Program-made: the position numbers and the translations under genes
Assembly: GCA_965235115.1 (NCBI GenBank)
Contig: OZ249436.1
Location: forward strand, 18,540,001-18,604,000
Reading direction: 5' to 3'
From: Laetmonice hystrix
Taxonomy: Eukaryota
DNA length: 64,000 nucleotides
Notes under the pieces: model-generated
Seen by the model: the letters and a program-made list of their open reading frames with translations, nothing else
Database searches by the model: none
Told to the model about the DNA's origin: nothing
Shown here: positions 60,681 to 61,380 of the stretch, one piece after another
How the letters are laid out: each line of letters begins with the position of its first letter
Numbering within the stretch: the stretch's first letter is position 1

Positions 60681-61380
60681 ATGGATGGGCATTCCCTAGA
60701 GGAGCCACCGGGAGTTGTCCTGCGTACGGGATATGGCCTATGGTTCAAAGAGGTGTACAAGATGTGCAACTCGAACACGGCATGGCAGCACATATTTGCT
60801 ATACAGAAACTGAGGATACCAAACTTAGATTGGACCTGAAACGAGACTATCTGCACTCTGGGGTTGGTGAATATGTTAAAAATCACCGTCGAGGCCTCGC
60901 AATATGACAAAATCATAGTAAATCATAAACACAAGAGGACATCTATTATCTCACAAATATGAAAATGGATTACCCAAGCAAATGGAATGTTAACCACCAG
61001 ACCGGAAAGACAGTATAGACGACGGATATCCCCGTTTGATTTTATTGGGACCGCAGCTTCCTGGTTGTTTGGATTAGCCACGGAGCAGGTTGACATTATT
61101 TCCGTCAGGGCCTCCAAAGAATCAGCCAGACTAAGTAATTTAGAAGCCTAGACACTATCTGTTCTCAATGTCACTAACCTAAGATTAAATGCTTTTAACG
61201 TGAACTTACACAAAATCGTAGTAGACATGGAAGTTTGGTGAGCCAAGATGAAGCGGGCAAACATGGCTGTATTGACCCTTGCAGAGCTTCCATAAAACTG
61301 ATTAAACTACTGTCGACTGATCTGGTCACCTTATCTTTCATCACACACAACGCTTCAGAACACAGAACTTTAAATTTACC
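60681..61380 (+). pseudogene. Envelope (F-type fusion protein-like) gene remnant of the gypsy element
   Basis: One frame with scattered stops: GVVLRTGYGLWF...WQHIFAI ... RQYRRRI-SPFDFIGTAASWLFGLATEQ, then a heptad-like stretch; same strand as and downstream of pol. Confidence 0.7.

Follow-up and report, generated by a model that had tools for sequence, protein, structure and literature searches.

A broken F-type env remnant of a Ty3/gypsy provirus in Laetmonice hystrix, and the predicted matrix-like tail of its intact relatives

The stretch of Laetmonice hystrix DNA analysed here – 64,000 nucleotides of contig OZ249436.1, positions 18,540,001 to 18,604,000, hereafter the window – very probably carries the broken 5′ env remnant of a Ty3/gypsy provirus. 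In the intact relatives of that provirus, one reading frame encodes a predicted class I (F-type) fusogen and, behind it, what is likely a second membrane protein, with a predicted matrix-like domain at its end. That the fragment is F-type env of a gypsy provirus is itself close to certain: the window has protease, then reverse transcriptase-RNase H, then the first third of env, all on one strand and with insertions among them. The copy is dead and encodes nothing functional, and the locus is ordinary, adding another defunct copy to a kind already described in print. What merits following is the tail, a property of the family rather than of the locus; the evidence for it comes from relatives and from weak structural scores, not from the window copy.

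The env fragment lies at 60660..61330 on the plus strand, as delimited by tblastn and blastp against the intact reference protein P0002 and by its stops, and comprises the end of the signal peptide, F2, the cleavage region, the fusion peptide and the first heptad helix – residues 9 to about 250 of 833. A first-pass annotation made from the letters alone had read this frame from 60681, and the frame does read as quoted there, interrupted by in-frame stops at 60837, 60960, 61149, 61239 and 61293; short in-frame deletions and a frameshift near 61293 add to the damage. The ATG at 60681 is internal rather than a start codon, because homology begins at 60660, at residue 9 and thus inside the P0002 signal peptide. 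It continues to 61292, resumes in a different frame and ends at about 61330 (the HSP past the frameshift reaches 61363), so the extent of 60681–61380 first proposed is corrected at both ends. Read through its stops (205 residues, X at stops), the fragment is 46% identical to P0002 – one longer protein that it matches, among 472 candidates – with 99% coverage and E 4.8e-48, a similarity that, judged from sequence, is far beyond chance. The A5 profile, made solely from 18 distant relatives and run against all six frames of the window, matches significantly at 60702–61088 and nowhere else (iE 1e-11). The env frame alone matches nothing in Pfam or among PDB sequences, and the remaining C-terminal residues, about 570 of them, were not found in 61250–64000. 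Run contigs over 60631–61517 differ by 6–7 letters only.

At the F2/F1 boundary, the furin-type region (61008..61025, plus strand) is recognised from a loose K/R-x-x-R pattern present in 108 of the 123 relatives that cover the aligned place. The annotated polybasic site thus survives as a basic stretch, but one decayed at its last position, the residue before the fusion peptide being basic in intact P0002 and not basic here. The hydrophobic fusion peptide begins at 61029, as annotated, and ends at 61079 (plus strand) instead of 61085; it contains an FG pair (F145 and G146 of P0002) conserved in at least 90% of 136 relatives and aligns with the post-cleavage peptide of the ‘fusion protein’ in PDB 9w4d. 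The heptad-like helix, also noticed earlier, falls within the P0002-homologous fragment as its first heptad helix.

The pol remnant is more widely scattered. Its protease region, frameshifted, lies at 49791..50357 (plus strand; P0174 residues 71–259; tblastn E 6e-22 and 3e-33), separated by about 7.3 kb of inserted repeats from a piece that precedes the reverse transcriptase, at 57650..57835 (plus strand; P0174 residues 271–333; tblastn E 9e-14). A 109-bp tandem array of about 13 copies and a related, partly palindromic 132-bp repeat occupy 50319–51824 and 56812–57590 inside this interrupted pol. A non-autonomous DNA element, recognised from its sequence and from the run contigs, is inserted at 57838..59016; it is 1.18 kb long and high-copy, ends in 16-bp terminal inverted repeats and is flanked by a 5-bp target duplication, and its empty site is seen in contigs of all three runs – which represent one sample – joining 57832 to 59017. 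The reverse transcriptase-RNase H (59017..60300, plus strand; Pfam RVT_1 and RT_RNaseH) has one stop, at 59374, and is 69–74% identical to the closest pols, P0173, P0174 and P0176 (70–74% over 59020–60270). Behind it, the integrase and chromodomain (P0174 residues ~770–1375) are missing, and the deletion also covers the region in which published ancient errantiviruses have a ‘mini’ domain after RNase H.

Between pol and env sits a high-copy repeat (60400..60659, minus strand, left edge approximate), placed there because depth in the run contigs is about 1e5 over 60378–60660, with loose ends at 60658/9; over env, depth is 24–62, similar to that of a neighbouring contig (31–63). The repeat adjoins env at the point from which the beginning of the signal peptide has gone. 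Translated on the minus strand, it shows a Cys/His knuckle, presumably of the kind found at the C-termini of I/Nimb-type LINEs, although it matches nothing in Pfam or the databases. Env is co-oriented with pol, as annotated, but does not lie directly behind it. No gag remnant was found before 49791 with distant queries, and neither LTRs nor a primer-binding site were seen in 50000–64000. A second env copy of at least 80% identity was not seen in the run contigs, which show presence, not absence. Elsewhere in the window, 35361–39584 (minus strand) holds an uninterrupted 1407-aa gag-pol of another Ty3/gypsy lineage (reverse transcriptase, RNase H and integrase), distant from the env-bearing element, and decayed gypsy pieces lie at 24276–27653 (plus), 33860–34990 (minus) and 40414–40947 (minus). 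Host exons encode an SH2 domain (2256–2480, minus), a signal-peptide/coiled-coil-like frame (15714–16475, plus) and a fibrinogen C-domain (30994–31266, plus), the last two perhaps of one gene.

Intact relatives share their gene order, their domain order and a conserved pattern of cleavage site and fusion peptide. Their F-type ectodomain, predicted to adopt the F fold, has a signal peptide, a furin site, a fusion peptide and a membrane anchor, of which the window keeps the N-terminal third. Two late membrane segments are present in 86 of 96 relatives, and the tail domain behind them is found in 104 of 111 long relatives, including 9 of the 16 left out of profile building; the 641-aa P0010, of the insect Env type, has no tail domain. 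The domain is small – about 105–110 residues – and is predicted, with high confidence, to be a beta-sandwich, which aligns over 94–99 residues with Borna disease virus M (PDB 3f1j and 4hiw). Comparison of the tail with matrix proteins gave no match at the level of sequence.

Kinship of this tail with the matrix proteins of Mononegavirales is, on the predicted models, the reading we moderately favour. It is rather unlikely that the same provirus remnant belongs to a family whose tail is an unrelated beta domain, resembling matrix proteins by convergence; such a domain could be a cytoplasmic module for trafficking or chaperoning, or could be luminal should the protein cross the membrane only twice. 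Against an unrelated domain, no unrelated beta fold ranks as high as any of six matrix families that are themselves only distantly related, the match spans nearly the whole domain, and in the viral library the tail matches best to glycoproteins of negative-strand RNA viruses; for a C-terminal model of 252 aa, the top 11 viral-library matches are chu-like glycoproteins or unclassified Riboviria (E 7e-5 to 9e-3). A luminal or unrelated tail is also at odds with the positive-inside bias at the second membrane segment (TM2) in 74 of 77 relatives.

An intact Env may work as follows. Its signal peptide would bring it into the ER, where a furin-type cut would free the fusion peptide and the first membrane segment (TM1) would hold the F trimer. 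A short hydrophobic stretch behind TM1 would re-enter the ER and probably be cut there by signal peptidase, releasing a small protein made of a Thr/Ser/Pro-rich luminal part of about 30 residues, TM2 and a cytoplasmic beta domain of about 110 residues with the predicted fold of bornavirus M and the VP40 N-domain. This two-protein topology is quite likely, as modelled. The beta domain would most plausibly line the membrane under the spikes and recruit the Gag core for budding, which is the matrix job in retroviruses and mononegaviruses; that it has such a function is, from the models, an even bet. Spike–core coupling of this sort would permit spread from cell to cell, as occurs in Drosophila errantiviruses.

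In the relatives, env and pol travel together. The closest pols are PR-RT-RH-IN-chromodomain proteins (PF00385 is listed for P0173, P0174, P0176 and P0178–P0180; Chromo E 4.8e-9 in P0174); the PR-RT-RH-IN order is complete in P0174 and in the distant locus L007, and PR, RT and RH of the window are collinear with P0174. When the ENA contigs of pols are matched to those of env-family proteins by size in bp rather than by coordinates, 12 of 14 distinct sizes recur (P0173 plus the clusters of P0174, P0175 and P0176, one 31-aa JGI member left out), those of 22306 and 306776 being the two that do not. Four of the five sizes in the P0002 cluster recur among P0174-cluster pols, and P0179/P0015 and P0180/P0017 share contig sizes (9029 bp for the latter pair). 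In the DNA of 14 distant-relative loci, pol lies just upstream of env in six and is lacking in three with at least 600 nt upstream, while the remaining five start at or near env, leaving nine informative loci. L007 carries three consecutive intact ORFs, and a 414-aa ORF without Pfam match lies upstream of its pol. Self-comparison of five loci revealed no LTRs. L008 has a Pfam gag downstream of env. At L013, the pol of a related env-bearing element (2–4078) has a Macro domain (E 4.7e-23) between the integrase and a weak chromodomain match, and a 504-codon frame without Pfam match (6923–8437) follows env.

In a quick tree, the window pol groups with the closest pols in a clade of 10 rows (support 100). 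In the env tree, the window copy and the matching envs form a clade of eight (support 99), in which it adjoins P0002 (94), and sister groups correspond between the two trees. As suspected, intact relatives exist, some families as intact copies more than 99% identical: P0002, P0004, P0005 and P0007 are 99.6–99.9% identical, which indicates recent spread, and their pols 99.6–99.7%. The P0002 family is a sister rather than the parent of the window copy, since identity is only 46%. The named relatives among the matches are bivalve (a Mytilus env and a Pinctada pol). The envs P0008 and P0160, 98.8% identical, share contigs (matched by size) with the pols P0176 and P0173, which are only 70.7% identical; a recent env swap is possible, as are two elements on one contig.

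It is very improbable, and largely refuted, that the env piece is a separate endogenised viral glycoprotein, aliusvirus-like or mollusc herpesvirus-like, lying beside pol by chance. In its favour, the full model finds its best viral folds in jingchuviral glycoproteins and in an abalone herpesvirus protein of 801 aa (E 2e-29 to 5e-25), the top Atlas clusters are mostly viral, the integrase is gone and a repeat parts pol from env; but the viral matches are 14–15% identical as against 46% for P0002, the env and pol trees are congruent, and both window pieces are closest to one family sharing contigs. The abalone protein (BFVD A0A145VUZ2) ranks second among viral fold matches to the whole Env, and Peploviricota are the commonest members of the leading Atlas clusters (839 and 897 aa); exchange between mollusc herpesviruses and env-bearing retroelements is possible. 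A syncytin-like host fusogen domesticated from env, to which the roughly single-copy depth over env in three runs might point, is scarcely credible given five stops, a frameshift, the lost start and C-terminal two thirds, and a long terminal branch (0.78 versus 0.32 for P0002).

The tail of the intact relatives would probably link envelope to core within the element itself. Ty3/gypsy Gag is not known to have a retroviral MA domain, and the M fold is not known outside negative-strand RNA viruses. A true matrix homologue would suggest how enveloped Ty3/gypsy particles couple Env to Gag without MA, propose where F-type jingchuviruses keep their matrix and tie the M fold to retroelements. The most far-reaching version is tentative, at slightly less than even chances: in a large group of invertebrate Ty3/gypsy elements, Env would be an F-plus-matrix polyprotein from which signal peptidase frees a membrane-anchored bornavirus M homologue, the same module would end aliusvirus glycoproteins, the F and M of Mononegavirales would share an ancestor with the retroelement cassette, and budding would use a mononegavirus-type matrix instead of Gag MA.

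The inference of an env-bearing gypsy lineage was right, and the kind is already in print. The text of Chary & Hayashi (eLife 2026, PMC13524379) describes intact Ty3/gypsy elements that carry env, in metazoans other than Echinodermata and Porifera. Among them are ‘ancient errantiviruses’ whose F-type ENV has a furin site and a fusion peptide, and one clade, from Cnidaria, Mollusca and Annelida, bears a chromodomain. Its supplement 1 has about 74 Annelida elements, with ENV_F in 14 of the 15 rows examined; Acal_3, Apac_4, Apac_8 and Avir_4 are both ENV_F and chromodomain-positive. Like these, the elements studied here have Ty3/gypsy pol, then an F-type env that encodes a furin site and a fusion peptide, multicopy intact families and a chromodomain after the integrase in the closest pols (deleted in the window); unlike them, the window copy is not intact. 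F-type ENV is presented there with a signal peptide, an ectodomain and a single transmembrane domain; the text analyses ectodomains alone and, in its main wording, mentions neither a second membrane segment nor a matrix-like tail (nor ‘matrix’, ‘borna’ or ‘jingchu’), features that seem to have gone unnoticed. Literature searches, with most subscription journals outside their reach, gave no paper on a retroelement or errantivirus env with a matrix-like domain, and the texts of Viro3D (PMC12583693) and of a preprint on chu-like viruses (10.1101/2024.11.25.625296) use ‘matrix’ in a numerical sense only.

The relatives resemble insect errantivirus Env (gypsy, ZAM, Idefix; PF07253) and baculovirus F (PF12259) in the basic site, the F.G...LFG fusion peptide and the predicted class I F fold. 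The PF12259 cut-off (24.1 bits) is passed by 16 of 54 relatives, the window fragment and P0002 giving no match; PF07253 is matched by neither window nor relatives among the families listed. Insect errantivirus Env has one anchor and a short tail, unlike the relatives, which are about 830 aa long with two late membrane segments. With the matrix proteins of Mononegavirales (Borna M, filovirus VP40, pneumo- and paramyxovirus M), the tail may share a beta-sandwich, as predicted, yet it ends the Env frame behind TM2, anchored in the membrane, rather than being a free protein from its own gene. Glycoproteins of Aliusviridae (Jingchuvirales) are among the top matches of the C-terminal model (Shayang fly virus 1 belongs to this family); because TM-scores are low (0.25–0.33) and come without an aligned range, a shared matrix-like domain is only inferred. 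The ICTV profile (PMC10770922), in the part consulted, names GP, NP and L besides unknown proteins, but lists no matrix protein for Jingchuvirales. The Viro3D text places the glycoproteins of Aliusviridae among class I F homologues. Aliusviruses differ in being RNA viruses with longer glycoproteins (730–1235 aa).
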